Assembly: GCA_965223855.1 (NCBI GenBank)
Contig: CBDCXM010000009.1
Coordinates: 3,040,001 to 3,104,000, forward strand
Source: Candidatus Multivoradales bacterium
Lineage (GTDB): Bacteria > Acidobacteriota > Thermoanaerobaculia > Multivoradales > JAHEKO01
DNA: 64,000 bases
Direction: 5' to 3'
A program made the position numbers and the translations under genes. Positions 20,547 through 26,814 of the stretch are shown piece by piece; positions within the stretch are counted from its first letter, which is position 1; every line of letters begins with the position of its first letter. Under the pieces are notes generated by a model, which searched no databases, was not told where the DNA came from, and worked only from the letters and a program-made list of their open reading frames with translations.

Positions 20547-23000
20547 TCAGAAGCCGAGTCGCAGAACCAGCCCGACGTTCCGCCCCGGGAGCGGCACCCG
20601 GTCCTTGACGAACGAGGTGTGCGTCCGCGCTTCCTCGTCGGTCAGGTTTGAGCCCCTCAGCAGGACGTCGAGGAAGTAGGTGTCGAAGAAGAACCGATAC
20701 CCGAGGTTGGCGTTGACGAGGGTGTAGTTCGCCGTCGCCGTCTCGTTGACGGCCACACGATCCTGGCTGTCCACCCACCGCCCCTCGATGCCGCCGCGCA
20801 GCCGGTCGCCCCGGTAGTGGAGCCCGGCGCCGAAGCGCTGCGGCGGGATCCGGGGCAGGTTGCTGCCGTCGTCGAACTCGGCACGGACGAAGTCGTAGAG
20901 AAGATCGAGATCCCACGAGGCGTGCGCTCGTTGCGCGAGCAGCACCGAGAGATCGACCTCACCTCCCCAGAAGTCGGCGTCCTGCTGCGACCACTGGAGT
21001 ACCGGCAGCCCGTCCTCCTCCTCACCGGTGAAGGCCTGGAAGATGAAGTCCGAGAACTGGTTGCGGAAGAGGTTGACGGCACCGGTCACCCGGCCCTCGA
21101 CCTTGCGCAGCGTCAGGTCGAGCCCCAGGGCCGCCTCGACATCGAGGTTCGGGTCCCCGACCTCGAAGGAGGCGGTGGCGAAGTGCGCGCCGTCCGAGTA
21201 GAGCTCTTCGCCCGTCGGCATCTTCGACGAGCGAGCGAGCGACGCCCCCAGAGAGTAGGTGTCGGAAGGCTTCCACACCAGCCCGATCGAAGCCGAGAGG
21301 GCGTCGAAGTCCCGGTTCGGTGCGTCGGCGGCTCTCACCGTGGTGTCCTGGGTTTCGTAGCGCACACCGAACTGGTAGCTCCAGTTTCCGCGCTCGAACT
21401 CCTGGAAGGTGAAGAGGCCGAGACTCTCCGCCTTGACAGGCGGCAGGAACGCCTCCTCGCCGACAGCCTCGAGATCCCTCGACCGCAGCTGCACGCCGAA
21501 CGACCCCTTGTGGGCGCCACGCTGGCGCTGCAGGAACTCGGCGCGAGCCTCCCAGGCGTCGTTGAAGAAGGTCGTCCCGATCTCCCCCTCGCCCTCGAGT
21601 TCGTCGTGCTCGTAGTCGACGACGCCGAGCCGGAACTTCGCGGACTCGACCAGACCGGTAGCACGGTTGAAGCCGCCCTCGAGGTCGAGGCGCTGCTGCC
21701 GCATGTCGATACGGATGTTCTCCTCCTCCTCCTCGCCTTCGTCGTGGTCGCCGTCGTGATCCTCGTCGCCGTCGTGCCCTTCGTCTCCTTCGTCGCCGTG
21801 CTCCTCCTCGTGGCCATGCTCGACGCCGGGGATCCCGTACTGAGTGTCGTAGCCCCTGACGGCGATGCCGAAGAAGCCCCGGTCGCCGAACCGGCGGCTC
21901 ATGCCGACGCCGGCGCTCGACGTCTCGAGATCGCTGTTCGGCAGAATGCCGAAGGGGTTCTCTTCCTCGTGATCGTCGTCGTGGCCGTCGTCGTCGTGGC
22001 CGTCATCGTCATGACCATCATCGTCGTGGCCATCGTCGTCGTGCTCCTCTTCGAGCGCCGCGAAGCCGGGAATCTCGTACTCGTCCGTCTCTCGCTGCAG
22101 CATCTCGAGATGCCACGCCCAGCTCTCGTTCCCACCGTCGAGGGAAACTGCACCGGCCCGCTCGTCCGACACCGAGCCGATTCTCAGGTCCACGGTGCCG
22201 GCAAAGCCGTCCGCTGGAGCGCCGTCGGGAATCCTGTTGTCCAGCACGTTGACGACGCCGCCGATCGCGTTGCTGCCGTAGAGGAGTGTTGCGGGCCCTC
22301 GCACCACCTCGACGCTTTCGGCGAGCAGCGGATCCGCGCTGACGGCATGGTCCGGGCTGCTGGTCGCGGCATCGAGGGTGTCGAGGCCGTTCTCCATCGT
22401 CTTCACCCGGTCGCCACCGAGGCCACGGATGATGGGCCGGCTCGAGCCGGGGCCGAAGTAGGTCGACGACACGCCGGCCTCCTGCGCCAGCGATTCGCCG
22501 AGCGTCGCCTCGACCTTGGACGCGAGCTCCAGGCCGTCGAGCACGTTGATCGGCGAGGCGACGTCGAGCTCGCCGCGGGCGTCGGGCGATGCCGTGACGA
22601 CAATCCTCTCGGCGTGCACCTCCCGGAGCAGCACGATCTCGAGCGGTGCGGACTCGCCGGTGGTCGCCTCGACTCGCTCCAGGGTGCGGTCGTGGCGAGC
22701 ACTGTCGATCTCGAGCAGGTGCTCACCGGGTTCGAGGCCCGTCAGTTCGAAGCAGCCCTGTTCGTCGGCCTGGGTGCGGACTCCGGTGCCGATGACGGAC
22801 AGCACGGCATCGACGACCGGCGCGTCGTCGGCAGTCACGACACAGCCTCGTATCGATGCCGCCTCGGGAGACTCTCCGGTCTGGGCGGTTGTGGGTATGG
22901 GTAGGGACAGCAGAAGAACCGATGCGACGATCGCCAGTCCGGCGGGGAGGGAGTTCCCCGTGGCGTGCCGCCTCTTCTGGATGCAGGAAGCGAAGTTCAT
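20547..23000 (-). CDS. TonB-dependent receptor, ZnuD-like, with His/Asp-rich loops
   Basis: Plug motifs (SRPIIRG, RGPATLLYGSNAIGGVVN), HDDDG repeats, C-terminal Phe. Confidence 0.92.
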   Translation of the reverse strand: MNFASCIQKRRHATGNSLPAGLAIVASVLLLSLPIPTTAQTGESPEAASIRGCVVTADDAPVVDAVLSVIGTGVRTQADEQGCFELTGLEPGEHLLEIDSARHDRTLERVEATTGESAPLEIVLLREVHAERIVVTASPDARGELDVASPINVLDGLELASKVEATLGESLAQEAGVSSTYFGPGSSRPIIRGLGGDRVKTMENGLDTLDAATSSPDHAVSADPLLAESVEVVRGPATLLYGSNAIGGVVNVLDNRIPDGAPADGFAGTVDLRIGSVSDERAGAVSLDGGNESWAWHLEMLQRETDEYEIPGFAALEEEHDDDGHDDDGHDDDGHDDDGHDDDHEEENPFGILPNSDLETSSAGVGMSRRFGDRGFFGIAVRGYDTQYGIPGVEHGHEEEHGDEGDEGHDGDEDHDGDHDEGEEEEENIRIDMRQQRLDLEGGFNRATGLVESAKFRLGVVDYEHDELEGEGEIGTTFFNDAWEARAEFLQRQRGAHKGSFGVQLRSRDLEAVGEEAFLPPVKAESLGLFTFQEFERGNWSYQFGVRYETQDTTVRAADAPNRDFDALSASIGLVWKPSDTYSLGASLARSSKMPTGEELYSDGAHFATASFEVGDPNLDVEAALGLDLTLRKVEGRVTGAVNLFRNQFSDFIFQAFTGEEEDGLPVLQWSQQDADFWGGEVDLSVLLAQRAHASWDLDLLYDFVRAEFDDGSNLPRIPPQRFGAGLHYRGDRLRGGIEGRWVDSQDRVAVNETATANYTLVNANLGYRFFFDTYFLDVLLRGSNLTDEEARTHTSFVKDRVPLPGRNVGLVLRLGF

Positions 23001-23004
23001 GACA

Positions 23005-23061
23005 GACCTCTCTTGCGTGGGGATGACAGACAGTTCCTCGACCAATGCGGGTCGAGAGGTC
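23005..23061 (-). promoter_or_regulatory. anti-SD stem over the TonB receptor ribosome-binding site
   Basis: GACCTCTC (23005-23012) and GAGAGGTC (23054-23061) form a perfect inverted repeat; the proximal arm is the SD 4 nt before the ATG. Confidence 0.55.
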
Positions 23062-23129
23062 GCTCGGTCTCGTCGAAGAGACCGGCGGCCGCGGATCTGG
23101 GAGGGCGAGAGGATCCTCGCCCTGGCGGA

Positions 23130-23483
23130 TCAGGCGGCCGGCGGAGCGCGAGAGGTCGGTAGAGCGAAGGGCTGGTGTAGCTCCGGTCGCGCGAGGTCGG
23201 CCGGCCGGGACGCCCCGAGCAGCTCGACGCTGCCGGCGCGAACCCAGGACGGCTCGCCGATCGACTGGCGGGAAGCCTGCACGCAATCGACGCACGACGG
23301 CTCGCTCAGCTGATGAACCGCCTCGACGTGCGCCCGCTCTTCGAGCGTCTCGTGACCAGCCGAAACCGTCGGCAGGTGCTCGTGACCGAGCGATTCGTGG
23401 TCGTGCGACCAGCCGGTCCCGATCGCCGCCATTCCGACGGCGAGCGACAAGGCCAGCAGTGAGCGCAACGAGAAGCTCTTCAC
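23130..23483 (-). CDS. DUF2946/CruR-like leader peptide (signal peptide, His-rich, CxxC, C-terminal RAPP)
   Basis: HDHESLGHEH, SCVDC, ends SRAPPAA; directly upstream of the TonB receptor. Confidence 0.75.
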   Translation of the reverse strand: MKSFSLRSLLALSLAVGMAAIGTGWSHDHESLGHEHLPTVSAGHETLEERAHVEAVHQLSEPSCVDCVQASRQSIGEPSWVRAGSVELLGASRPADLARPELHQPFALPTSRAPPAA

Positions 23484-23593
23484 GAGCAGAAAGGTAGCAG
23501 GTGTGGGAGTTCCGCGACAAGATCGCCCGACGGCAGGTGTGAGGGCTCAGCGCAGCAGCGCCGGCCGGGCCGCTCGGCTAAGATGGCGCCGGA

Positions 23594-23932
23594 ATGATCG
23601 GGAAGCGCCTTTTCGCGACAACGCTCGCCGCGCTGCTCTTCGGCGCCGTGGCGGCACCCTGCATGACCATGGAGGGTTGCGAGCCGCCGCCGGCTCAGGA
23701 GTCGCATTGCGAGCCGACCGGGCCGACGCTCGATGTCGCCTGTTGCTGCGACGGTGCCGACTCGACCGCCACGGACGCGATGCGCCCCGCCGGCGCCCAT
23801 CAGGTGTCGCCCGCCGCTCCCGCTCTCGTCGCACGGACGAGCCACGGCCCGCGGGTCGATCGGCTTCCTGAGCCGCCGCCGCCCGCCCCGCCCGGCGCCC
23901 TGCAGACCTCGCTCTGCATCTCCCTGACCTGA
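23594..23932 (+). CDS. CutF-like Cys-rich, Pro-rich leader peptide
   Basis: Signal peptide, PCMTMEGC...HC...CCC, then PEPPPPAPP near the C-terminus; directly upstream of the multicopper oxidase. Confidence 0.7.
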   Translation: MIGKRLFATTLAALLFGAVAAPCMTMEGCEPPPAQESHCEPTGPTLDVACCCDGADSTATDAMRPAGAHQVSPAAPALVARTSHGPRVDRLPEPPPPAPPGALQTSLCISLT

Positions 23933-24061
23933 CCGCTTCTTCGGCGGCGCCTCGAGCGCCGCTCGATGTCGTTGCGGAAGAGCATCAGGTAGGACCGTCC
24001 TCGGAAGGTCGCAGCTCCAACACAGCTGCCCACCCGGGGATCAGCAACAGGCCGGGAGATG
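23917..24061 (+). promoter_or_regulatory. anti-SD stem over the copA ribosome-binding site/start
   Basis: CATCTCCC (23917-23924) is the exact reverse complement of GGGAGATG (24054-24061); pairing extends through cctg/cagg. Confidence 0.55.
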
Positions 24062-25999
24062 GGTATGAATCGCAGACAGTTCTTGAAGTTCGCATCGGCG
24101 CTCGGTGGCAGCGCCGTCGCACAAGCTCTCCTGCCGCCGTGGGCGCGATCGGCGTGGGCGGTCGGCAGCGACCCGACGGCCGATCCGCTCGCGCGGCCTT
24201 CCCTCGAGACGGCCGAGAGCTTCCTCCTGAAGGTGGCAGAGAGCTCCTGGGAGATCGAGGGCCGAACCGGCCGCGCCGTGACCCTCAACGGCACCATACC
24301 GGGGCCGCTCCTGCGGTGGCGCGAGGGCACCGAGGTGACCCTCGACGTCGACAACCGACTCGGCGAAGACACGTCGATCCACTGGCACGGCATCCTTCTG
24401 CCTCCCGAGATGGACGGAGTGCCGGGCGTGAGCTTCGCCGGCATCCCGGGTCGCGAGACCTTCCGCTACCGGTTCCCGGTGCTGCAGTCCGGTACCTACT
24501 GGTACCACAGCCATTCGGGATTCCAGGAGCAGTTGGGGCACTACGGGCCGCTACTCATTGATCCTGCGGGTGCCGACCCGATCGGGTCGGATCGCGAGAT
24601 CGTCATCGTCCTCGCTGATTGGACCTTCGAGAACCCCCGGCGGGTTTTCGCCAAGCTCAAGAAGGTCAGTCACGCGTACGACTATCAGAAGCTGACCGTG
24701 AGGGATCTCTTCCGCCGCGCCAGGAACGACGGTTGGGGCGAGGCACTGCGGGAGCGCGCCATGTGGGGATCGATGCGGATGAGCCCGACCGACCTCGCGG
24801 ACGTCACAGGAGCGACCTACACCTATCTGATCAACGGGCACGGGCCGGAGGACGACTGGACCGCGCTCTTCGAGCCGGGCGAGCGGCTCCGGCTGCGGAT
24901 CATCAACGCATCGGCGATGTCGATCTTCAACGTCCGTATCCCGGGTCTGCCGATGACGGTAGTGCAGTCCGACGGGCTGCCGGTGAGGCCGATGACGGTC
25001 GACGAGTTCCAGATCGGGACCGCGGAGACCTACGATGTCGTCGTCCAGACCTCGGAGCACCGCGCCTACACCCTGATGTGCGAGTCGATCGACCGCAGCG
25101 GCTTCGCGCGCGCCACGCTGACACCGGAGCTCGGCCTCCGCGCCGAGGTGCCCGAGCTGCGCGAGAGACCGCTGCTGACGATGGGCGACATGGGCATGGA
25201 GCACCACGGGGCGCACGGCGCCCACGATGGCGGAACCGAGGCGCCCGAGGAGCAGGGTGGGCATGGCTCTCACGAAGCCATGGATCACGGCAGCATGAAC
25301 CACGACGACAAGGATCACGGCGACATGGATCATGCCGGCATGCATCACGAAGGAATGAATCACGGCGCCATGGGTCACGCGGGCATGGACGCTCACGAGC
25401 ACGGCGAAGCGGCCGGCGGCGGCTCCGCATGGCCGACCGAGCCCACCGCCAGACAGCCGGTCGAGCGCGGCCCCGGGGTGGCCAACGTCGCCGAGACGCC
25501 GCGCAACAGACTTCACGAGCCCGGCATCGGGCTCGAGGACGTGGCTCATCGCACGCTGAGCTACGCGGATCTCGAGAGCCTCGACACCAACCCGGACACC
25601 CGGCCTCCGGAGCGGGAGCTCGAGTTGCATCTTACGAGCAACATGGAGCGCTACATGTGGTCGTTCGACGGCGTGAAGCTCTCCGAGAACCCCGAACCGA
25701 TCGTCTTCCACGAGGGGGAGCGCCTGCGCCTGACGATGGTGAACAACACCATGATGCCGCACCCGATCCACCTGCACGGGATGTTCTTCGAGGTGGTCAA
25801 CGGCAAGGGCTCCAGGCAGCCGCGCAAGCACACCATCATCGTGAAGCCGGCCGAGAAGCTGTCGCTCGACGTCACTGCCGACGCCGTCGGCGACTGGGCG
25901 TTCCACTGCCATCTGCTCTACCACATGCATGCCGGGATGATGCGGGTGGTGTCGGTCCGGCCTCGCACGTCGGAGCCGGCGGCGAGGGAGGAGGCATGA
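24059..25999 (+). CDS. copA: copper-resistance multicopper oxidase (CopA/PcoA type)
   Basis: Tat signal NRRQFLK; HWHG, WYHSH, HPIHLHG and HCHLLYHM motifs; His/Met-rich insert. Confidence 0.96.
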   Translation: MGMNRRQFLKFASALGGSAVAQALLPPWARSAWAVGSDPTADPLARPSLETAESFLLKVAESSWEIEGRTGRAVTLNGTIPGPLLRWREGTEVTLDVDNRLGEDTSIHWHGILLPPEMDGVPGVSFAGIPGRETFRYRFPVLQSGTYWYHSHSGFQEQLGHYGPLLIDPAGADPIGSDREIVIVLADWTFENPRRVFAKLKKVSHAYDYQKLTVRDLFRRARNDGWGEALRERAMWGSMRMSPTDLADVTGATYTYLINGHGPEDDWTALFEPGERLRLRIINASAMSIFNVRIPGLPMTVVQSDGLPVRPMTVDEFQIGTAETYDVVVQTSEHRAYTLMCESIDRSGFARATLTPELGLRAEVPELRERPLLTMGDMGMEHHGAHGAHDGGTEAPEEQGGHGSHEAMDHGSMNHDDKDHGDMDHAGMHHEGMNHGAMGHAGMDAHEHGEAAGGGSAWPTEPTARQPVERGPGVANVAETPRNRLHEPGIGLEDVAHRTLSYADLESLDTNPDTRPPERELELHLTSNMERYMWSFDGVKLSENPEPIVFHEGERLRLTMVNNTMMPHPIHLHGMFFEVVNGKGSRQPRKHTIIVKPAEKLSLDVTADAVGDWAFHCHLLYHMHAGMMRVVSVRPRTSEPAAREEA

Positions 26000-26814
26000 A
26001 GCTGTTGCGGAACGTCGCGATTGGCGGTTGGGCCGTCGCCTTCGCCCTCGCCATGGCGGTTCGAGCGGAGGCCTCCGGCAAGCATCCCGCCGATCATGAG
26101 GATGGAATGGAGAAGGCCCGCCACCACATGTTGCGCCACCATGGAGGGCTACCGCACTGGATGGTGATGGCGGATCGGCTCGAGTGGCGGGAGGACGAGG
26201 AGTTCCTCCTCTGGGATCTCCAGGGTTGGTACGGAGGCGATCGGCATCGGCTGTGGTTCAAGAGCGAGGCCGAGTACGAGCTCGATGGCTCTGATCCCGA
26301 CCGGCTCGTCACCGGCTCGATGAGCGAAAGCGACTTTCATGAGTTCGAGCTGCAGGCTCTCTACGGCCGGGCTGTGACCACCTACTTCGATGTCCTGCTC
26401 GGGCTGAGGCACGATTTCGAGCCGGATCCGGCGACGAGCTATGCCGTCGTCGGCCTGCACGGGCTCGCCCCCCAGATGTTCGAGATCGACGCCTCTCTCT
26501 TCGTCAGCGATGAAGGCGACCTCTCACTGCGCCTCGAAGCCGAGTACGAGCTCCTGCTGACCCAACGGCTGGTTCTCCAGCCTCGCATCGAGCTGGAGGC
26601 CTCGGCTCAGGAGGTCCCCGAACGAGAGCTCGGCAGCGGCCTCAGCTCGGCCGAGGGGGGACTGCGCCTGCGCTACGAGGTTCGGCGCGAGTTCGCCCCG
26701 TACATCGGCTGGAGCTGGGAGCGGAAGCTCGGTGCCACGGAGCGGCTCGCAACGGCGGCGGGGGAGGAGGCCTCGGCCTCGACGCTCGTTGTCGGACTGA
26801 GGCTCTGGTATTGA
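25996..26814 (+). CDS. copB: copper resistance protein B
   Basis: DRLEW, WYGGD, GLAP and GLRLRYEVRREFAPYIG motifs; ATGA overlap with copA. Confidence 0.93.
   Translation: MKLLRNVAIGGWAVAFALAMAVRAEASGKHPADHEDGMEKARHHMLRHHGGLPHWMVMADRLEWREDEEFLLWDLQGWYGGDRHRLWFKSEAEYELDGSDPDRLVTGSMSESDFHEFELQALYGRAVTTYFDVLLGLRHDFEPDPATSYAVVGLHGLAPQMFEIDASLFVSDEGDLSLRLEAEYELLLTQRLVLQPRIELEASAQEVPERELGSGLSSAEGGLRLRYEVRREFAPYIGWSWERKLGATERLATAAGEEASASTLVVGLRLWY

Follow-up and report, generated by a model that had tools for sequence, protein, structure and literature searches.

We analysed a window of 64,000 nucleotides (nt) from Candidatus Multivoradales bacterium (Acidobacteriota; Thermoanaerobaculia; GenBank assembly GCA_965223855.1, contig CBDCXM010000009.1, positions 3,040,001 to 3,104,000; coordinates below are those of the window), in which two small open reading frames (ORFs) lie back to back, one ahead of a TonB-dependent receptor gene and the other ahead of the copper-resistance genes copA and copB. 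The left ORF (23130-23483, minus strand) starts with GTG, encodes 117 amino acids (aa) and is CruR-like, with a signal-like N-terminus, eight histidines including a cluster, a CxxC motif (C64-x-x-C67, 23283-23294) and a RAPP motif (residues 112-115, 23139-23150) followed by two residues and the stop codon. The right ORF (23594-23932, plus strand) encodes 112 aa and is CutF/CopL-like by architecture and position. It combines a signal-like N-terminus with seven cysteines (CCC at residues 50-52, 23741-23749, the others at 23, 29, 39 and 108) and the proline tract PEPPPPAPP (residues 92-100, 23867-23893), after which a 12-residue tail leads to the stop codon. Both N-termini are basic and then hydrophobic, as judged by a hydropathy heuristic only, and 110 base pairs (bp) separate the two divergent starts. 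The receptor gene (20547-23000, minus strand) encodes an 817-aa protein that is ZnuD-like by NCBIfam and structure comparison and carries two His/acidic tracts (residues 317-347 and 394-427). On the other side, copA (24065-25999, plus strand, with an alternative in-frame ATG at 24059) encodes a Tat-exported copper-resistance multicopper oxidase, recognized by TIGR01480 (793 bits, cut-off 479), a Tat signal and Pfam Cu-oxidase domains, and is followed by copB (25996-26814, plus strand), encoding an outer-membrane copper resistance protein (PF05275, 270 bits). A preliminary description had listed these elements, namely two divergent ORFs of about 115 aa with signal-peptide-like N-termini, one with a His cluster, CxxC and terminal RAPP ahead of a His-rich receptor and one with seven Cys including CCC and PEPPPPAPP ahead of copAB, and all of them were found. 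Judged by their sequence features, both ORFs are likely metal-sensing ribosome-stalling leaders of known kind.

Coding potential of the small ORFs

Scored for fit to the codon usage of the genome, the left and right ORFs were the best of eight overlapping frames (-0.02 and +0.01 bits per codon vs -0.24 to -0.83), and their G+C contents at third codon positions are 0.84 and 0.86. Conservation of the left architecture in 33 of 34 loci of relatives, described below, goes beyond chance. We find it barely credible that the small ORFs are untranslated and their motifs by-products of GC-rich DNA. Their codon scores do fall below those of ordinary genes (5th percentile 0.19), and Pro/Ala/Arg-rich frames are common at 68% GC, but this idea is countered by the 33/34 conservation with fixed spacing, by Atlas recognition of the two ORFs (2881 and 2565) and by the roughly ninefold depletion of RAPP in Acidobacteriota proteomes (PMC12992588). 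Single short-read contigs from two runs cover the whole pair (22251-25667 and 22622-25918), which shows that the junction did not arise by joining during assembly. Both runs come from one sample and might have supplied the reads for the assembly, and they do not count as independent evidence.

The left leader and its receptor

Receptor matches were obtained in 33 of 60 relatives, and upstream DNA was taken for 34 of those places. A same-strand small ORF ending in RAPP or RGPP stands upstream of the receptor homolog in 33 of the 34 loci, in 32 cases with a CxxC. In an alignment of 32 rows (two relatives were omitted, one lacking CxxC and one a near-duplicate) M1, both cysteines, the arginine and both prolines are invariant at a mean identity of about 24%. 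The distance from CxxC to the terminal motif is 41-45 residues in all 33 CxxC leaders, this one included, and 43-44 in 29 of them. It is 44 residues here and 45 in CruR, where the spacing matters (PMC9426467). The family profile matches 49 of the 60 relatives. A link to DUF2946, which the preliminary description had proposed checking, was borne out in weak form for the left ORF: PF11162 aligns over its full length at 13.3 bits (E 0.14) against a gathering cut-off of 23.7, and a DUF2946 search of the organism's own genome did not recover it. Weak DUF2946 matches occur in 10 of 32 family members (best E 0.0011), none over the cut-off, and 9 of 30 Atlas neighbours of the left ORF, found at 0.97, carry some DUF2946. 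The right ORF had no match to DUF2946.

Overall, the left ORF shares with CruR (Bp2923) of Bordetella pertussis the first place in the operon, an export-like N-terminus, CxxC, a near-terminal RAPP and a downstream TonB receptor (BfrG in B. pertussis), with spacers of 129 and 162 nt, respectively (PMC9426467). Arrest of CruR itself was shown in vitro (PMC12992588). Unlike CruR, the left ORF scores below the DUF2946 cut-off, has its His cluster ahead of the CxxC and is probably leaderless, and its operon has a ZnuD-like rather than copper-type receptor and no PepSY gene behind it. The best NCBIfam family of this receptor is ZnuD (NF038289, 391 bits; copper-receptor model, 53 bits), and among solved structures ZnuD (4rdr) alone is related to it at E<=1e-10. 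Because the receptor is ZnuD-like, zinc is a likelier substrate than copper and, by these sequence matches, the likeliest one. Elsewhere in the genome, four more small ORFs have a hydrophobic N-terminus and RAPP or RGPP at their end. The one at C6:3755-4114 (minus strand) precedes a paralog of this receptor, and the others are at C8:353378-353800 (minus), C9:640002-640472 (plus) and C9:1853355-1853771 (minus). Among relatives, L168:2086-2568 (minus) is a RAPP/CxxC leader ahead of an outer-membrane efflux gene, contrary to the rule of thumb that RAPP gates import.

The 129 nt between the left leader and the receptor gene (23001-23129, minus strand) form a structured, C-rich spacer (49 C, 36 G) and a candidate Rho-loading region, a role suggested by CruR. 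In the 80 nt past the left-leader stop, C exceeds G in 31 of 33 relatives; among 304 ordinary spacers of this genome it does so in 154. A Rho gene is present in the genome. By analogy, the C-rich spacer together with Rho is consistent with the CruR mechanism, in which copper relieves an arrest at RAPP and termination depends on Rho. We also considered a translational switch acting on the ribosome-binding site (RBS) of the receptor gene (GAGAGGTC, 23005-23012, minus strand). An 8-nt complement of this RBS lies in left codons 109-112 (23150-23157, minus strand; synonymous-shuffle p 0.01), under a RAPP-stalled ribosome, and a second one within the spacer (23054-23061, minus strand). Such a complement reaches p<=0.1 in synonymous shuffles in 8 of 33 leaders. 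This candidate was rejected: the complement is present and partly conserved, but RBS accessibility did not change in a scan of ribosome footprints.

The right leader and copA-copB

The order right ORF-copA-copB is that of Xanthomonas copL-copA-copB, the closest layout, which the earlier comparison with CutF had overlooked. That comparison did hold in so far as the right ORF passes the published CutF-like filters (<150 aa, signal peptide, PP within the last 15 residues, same-strand downstream gene within 1000 nt; PMC9973294), having 112 aa, P99-P100 in the last 14 residues, 132 nt to copA and, by the hydropathy heuristic, a putative signal peptide. The survey that used these filters describes a CutF-like superfamily of 5,334 proteins in 29 clusters, including CruR, CopL and CzcI (PMC9973294). 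Both small ORFs fit the filters of this survey and of a survey of RAPP/RGPP upstream ORFs, and TonB receptors and copper genes are common downstream neighbours in both (PMC9973294, PMC12992588). Like CopL (Xanthomonas, NF033807, PMC9973294), the right ORF is small, Cys-rich, of exported type and directly ahead of copA (TIGR01480)-copB, and the two have a CC motif and spacers of 115-132 nt in common. Unlike CopL, it ends 12 residues after PP rather than two, and the two share no sequence similarity: NF033807 gave no match at E<=1 and pairwise comparison with CopL E 1.5, while a genuine CopL scores 112 bits. A search of NCBIfam with the right-ORF alignment returned nothing useful, comparison of the left and right leader profiles gave a probability of 3%, and the Atlas neighbours of the right ORF, at 0.96, are unnamed clusters of equal length. 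The Atlas clusters closest to this genome belong mostly to Acidobacteriota.

By our reading, 18 of the 31 copA loci from the same phylum have a leader-like ORF at the start of the operon; one of the 31 is below the family cut-off. In several of these leaders the prolines are missing or displaced and a hydrophobic C-terminal tail is kept. A profile of the right ORF and 21 similar leaders matches 340 clusters at E<=0.001; among the best 149, from which the right ORF is excluded, 87 carry a hydrophobic tail that is conserved, with 12-13 residues following the final PP. In this large unnamed family (P0002-P0150), 64-71 residues separate the Cys motif from the C-terminus in 97 of the 99 members with such a motif, and four members searched against NCBIfam had no match.

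A 132-nt structured spacer separates the right ORF from copA, whose ribosome-binding region (GGGAGATG, 24054-24061, plus strand) has a perfect 8-nt complement, CATCTCCC, in right codons 108-111 (23917-23924, plus strand). Folding gives the copA RBS a predicted unpaired probability of about 0.3-0.4 without a ribosome, 0.04-0.14 with a ribosome at codons 96-104 and 0.48-0.60 at codons 105-112. Because the last right-leader codons pair with the copA RBS, folding predicts opening with a ribosome near the stop and not at the prolines. Opening near the stop was predicted in 16 of 25 tail-type leaders (two fell), a set made up of the right ORF and 24 leaders hand-picked from 38 candidates, and in 7 of 15 leaders of the same phylum (none fell). 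CopL has no such step near its stop in the folding scan, unlike the right ORF. In 110 of 156 control gene pairs, RBS accessibility rose in 12 and fell in 13; comparison of leaders with these controls overstates significance, as the sets are related and not length-matched and the step also takes away a few bases past the stop.

These predictions bear on the possibility that the right leader works exactly as CutF does, with a copper-induced stall at PPPP opening the copA RBS. Like CutF of the Rhodobacter capsulatus cutFOG operon (PMC9973294; bioRxiv 10.1101/2025.02.05.636593), the right ORF has a signal-like N-terminus, a Cys motif and a PEP-initiated proline tract, its PEPPPP resembling CutF PEPEGPPP. 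C52 lies 42-45 residues before P94-P97, near the 41-43 derived for CutF, EF-P is present in the genome, and in both operons a multicopper oxidase with a masked RBS (here predicted) follows. Unlike CutF, the right ORF has CCC and spaced cysteines instead of CxxxC, and its masking sequence occupies the final codons of the leader itself, where CutF has an intergenic stem-loop. The prolines end 12-15 residues before the stop here vs 2-3 in CutF, CopL and CruR (two after the PPP of CutF itself; PMC9973294, PMC9426467), and among the copA leaders of the phylum it is the hydrophobic tail that is kept where prolines are lost. A ribosome at P96-P100 is moreover predicted to leave the RBS most closed, so that a stall would act in the direction opposite to CutF. 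The CutF-type stall assumed earlier for these prolines is not supported by the folding model, and we regard an exact CutF mode as unlikely, if not far-fetched. On balance we lean slightly towards a ribosome that moves on to the stop, or pauses there, and away from a stall at the prolines as in CutF; the Cys-to-proline distance and EF-P speak for that rival.

A further alternative is that the right ORF encodes a secreted copper-binding peptide and no ribosome sensor, with copAB controlled by a distant transcription factor and plain translational coupling. It would fit an ORF without a sequence family, the CsoR-, MerR- and Fur-family genes of the genome and a tail-RBS pairing test that was not significant. 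The architecture and position of the ORF, however, match the cis-acting CutF and CopL, the spacer to copA is structured over its 132 nt, and the 110-bp region has no palindrome beyond chance. We therefore rate this alternative as improbable.

Promoters and conservation of the pair

Each ORF has its own putative -10 box, TACCTT 7 nt before the left start (23491-23496, minus strand), with a predicted leaderless transcript, and TAAGAT 9 nt before the right start (23579-23584, plus strand), with a predicted leaderless or nearly leaderless one. With 83 nt between the two boxes, the single shared bidirectional promoter region of the preliminary description is not supported, and two putative leaderless-type promoters are predicted. 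A TAnnnT -10-like box 5-9 nt before the start is found in 17 of 34 left-type leaders, this one included, compared with 76 among the 6654 start codons of these loci, with several candidate starts considered for each ORF, and 14 of 17 copA-operon leaders examined in the order and phylum have a leaderless-type box. A scan for sigma-70 promoters and terminators found none, and the 110-bp region contains no palindrome beyond chance. A 9-nt direct repeat in this region was rejected as an operator: such repeats occur in 11% of 3000 random windows, and a relaxed form is present in 1 of 33 relatives. A four-codon ORF (23583-23597), whose stop overlaps the right-leader ATG, is probably a chance occurrence because it begins within the putative -10 box. 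The claim that no transcription factor is adjacent holds for 14-34 kb of the window; other parts of the genome do carry Fur-, CsoR- and MerR-family genes, which makes control in trans possible.

Conservation was assessed for each module and for the pair. The left leader precedes the receptor at nearly all loci of the relatives, as described above, and copA was found in few genomes (0 of 4 same-genus, 2 of 36 same-family and 12 of 400 class genomes), as was CopB in the phylum (22 of 400), counts that come from samples of partly incomplete genomes. We examined 65 RAPP-leader loci, three of them without a leader, leaving 62. Four of the 62 have a divergent second RAPP/RGPP leader (one was missed by a later filter), and a tailed leader opposite a RAPP leader was seen in none, with a weak detector. 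Behind the partner leaders stand, in one pair, a DUF4198 gene together with a second receptor and, in the others, an ABC transporter, an unnamed protein or an efflux channel. These head-to-head pairs are L006, L015, L034 and L168; the divergent operon of L006 contains, farther downstream, a third RAPP ORF that is rich in His. Back-to-back copA loci with another leader number 2 of 31 in the same phylum and 1 of 21 in proteobacteria, and all three face an outer-membrane efflux gene; in L037, L135 and L097 (the last judged from sequence) head-to-head leaders link the copA operon to an RND efflux operon. The recurring leader pairs span 771-957 nt from stop to stop, compared with 803 nt here. A pair of importer and copAB leaders was not seen at any other locus examined. 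Synteny, which the preliminary description had proposed checking, holds for the left leader and its receptor but was not seen for the pair. In a metagenome scan, receptors were only distant (30-40% identity) and an opposite-strand RAPP leader was present at 0 of 28 loci.

As the preliminary description had surmised, we found no account of the paired layout in the searchable literature, which leaves subscription papers uncovered and list D of PMC9973294 as a place that may include such leaders or pairs. The accessible text of a Zur-regulon paper and of a metallostasis review has nothing on paired leaders, and in that of the CutF and CruR papers (PMC9973294, PMC9426467) the word 'divergent' is absent and no head-to-head pairs were seen.

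The preliminary description had gone further and suggested that one bidirectional promoter region may drive two opposite sensors that reciprocally tune metal import and copper detoxification. Taken to its full extent, this would be a single coupled and selected switch for uptake and detoxification of one metal. Only 110 bp separate the starts, opposite outputs are plausible, and back-to-back leaders of similar span do recur (4/62, 2/31 and 1/21 loci). Against this, the combination of import and copAB was seen once, with no other import/detoxification case in the loci read and the three other copA pairs facing efflux channels; there are two separate -10 boxes; the receptor is of zinc type and the oxidase of copper type, which speaks against tuning by one metal; and the sole repeat in the spacer is at chance level and not conserved. 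We consider such a coupled switch distinctly improbable. The two -10 boxes, the rarity of copA in relatives and the lack of another import/copAB pair argue for two independent modules, and the pairing is probably their local juxtaposition, one instance of head-to-head clustering of metal modules.

Proposed explanation

Our preferred explanation, which we hold to be reasonably probable, is that of two independent back-to-back mini-operons, each with a likely metal-sensing nascent-chain leader and no need for coupling. The left leader would serve a probable zinc importer and be CruR-like but divergent; the right one would resemble CutF and CopL without belonging to a known class and would differ from them in the geometry of its tail. 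Translation, stalling, metal identity and direction of control are inferred for both. Each mini-operon would have a promoter of its own, give a leaderless transcript and begin with a small exported peptide that senses a metal during its translation. On the left, by analogy with CruR, a ribosome would stall at RAPP when metal is scarce, shielding the C-rich spacer from Rho so that the receptor is made; metal, probably zinc, would be bound by the histidines and by the CxxC 44 residues upstream, releasing the stall and turning import off. On the right, more tentatively, the Cys-rich peptide would respond to copper, and a ribosome that has moved beyond the prolines and lingers on the final codons and the stop would free the copA RBS and allow translation of copAB. 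CruR and CutF have opposite responses to copper, and opposite outputs (import down, detoxification up) are plausible here. Of the preliminary description, two nascent-chain sensors with opposite outputs remain plausible, given the CruR hallmarks on the left and the CutF-like filters on the right; a conserved pairing and tuning by one metal are not supported.

Several results weigh against this explanation. The 391 bits of the receptor lie below the NF038289 cut-off of 950, and the left footprint scan gave no RBS switch, with an accessibility of 0.22-0.28 throughout. The leader of L168, standing before an efflux channel, implies that the RAPP/CxxC motif type has no fixed direction of control. 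The right ORF has no homolog, a direct search finding only itself among 227 candidates; it was not found by a profile of 18 copA-locus leaders of its phylum and its 5.7 bits on the profile of 149 tail leaders did not stand out from shuffled sequences (3 of 200 after full shuffling, 24 of 200 when the N-terminus was left intact). Its tail-RBS pairing exceeds that of synonymous shuffles only slightly (p 0.06-0.08 for this ORF; 22 leaders together give a median of 0.22). Finally, the absence of the pair elsewhere is weakly tested, the sample having no close relatives that carry both modules.

Elsewhere in the window, a near-identical duplicate (about 14.8-16.4 kb and 17.3-18.9 kb) comprises the ppk2 end, a tRNA-Leu gene and the start of kefF/kefB-like genes, with several small indels in the first copy of the kef genes. 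It may reflect a recent insertion or an error of long-read assembly.

Conclusion

Each half of the locus resembles, with some divergence, a system already described, and the pair itself is not conserved; the surprise is limited accordingly. A wider proposition, speculative and on balance doubtful, is that the geometry of the mRNA lets a single sensing chemistry act in opposite directions, with metal-triggered release turning a RAPP-led importer off and copAB on. Masking would then reside in the last codons of leaders with 12-13-residue tails, the tailed leaders (at least 340 clusters) would form a class of their own whose effect arises at the stop codon or close to it, and head-to-head pairs would be a recurrent, factor-free wiring of Acidobacteriota metal operons. 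The tailed leaders suggest a third wiring, and a zinc-responsive member, if true, would extend a mechanism shown so far for copper only. With CruR and CutF types side by side, the locus is a compact test bed for the opposite responses of one family.

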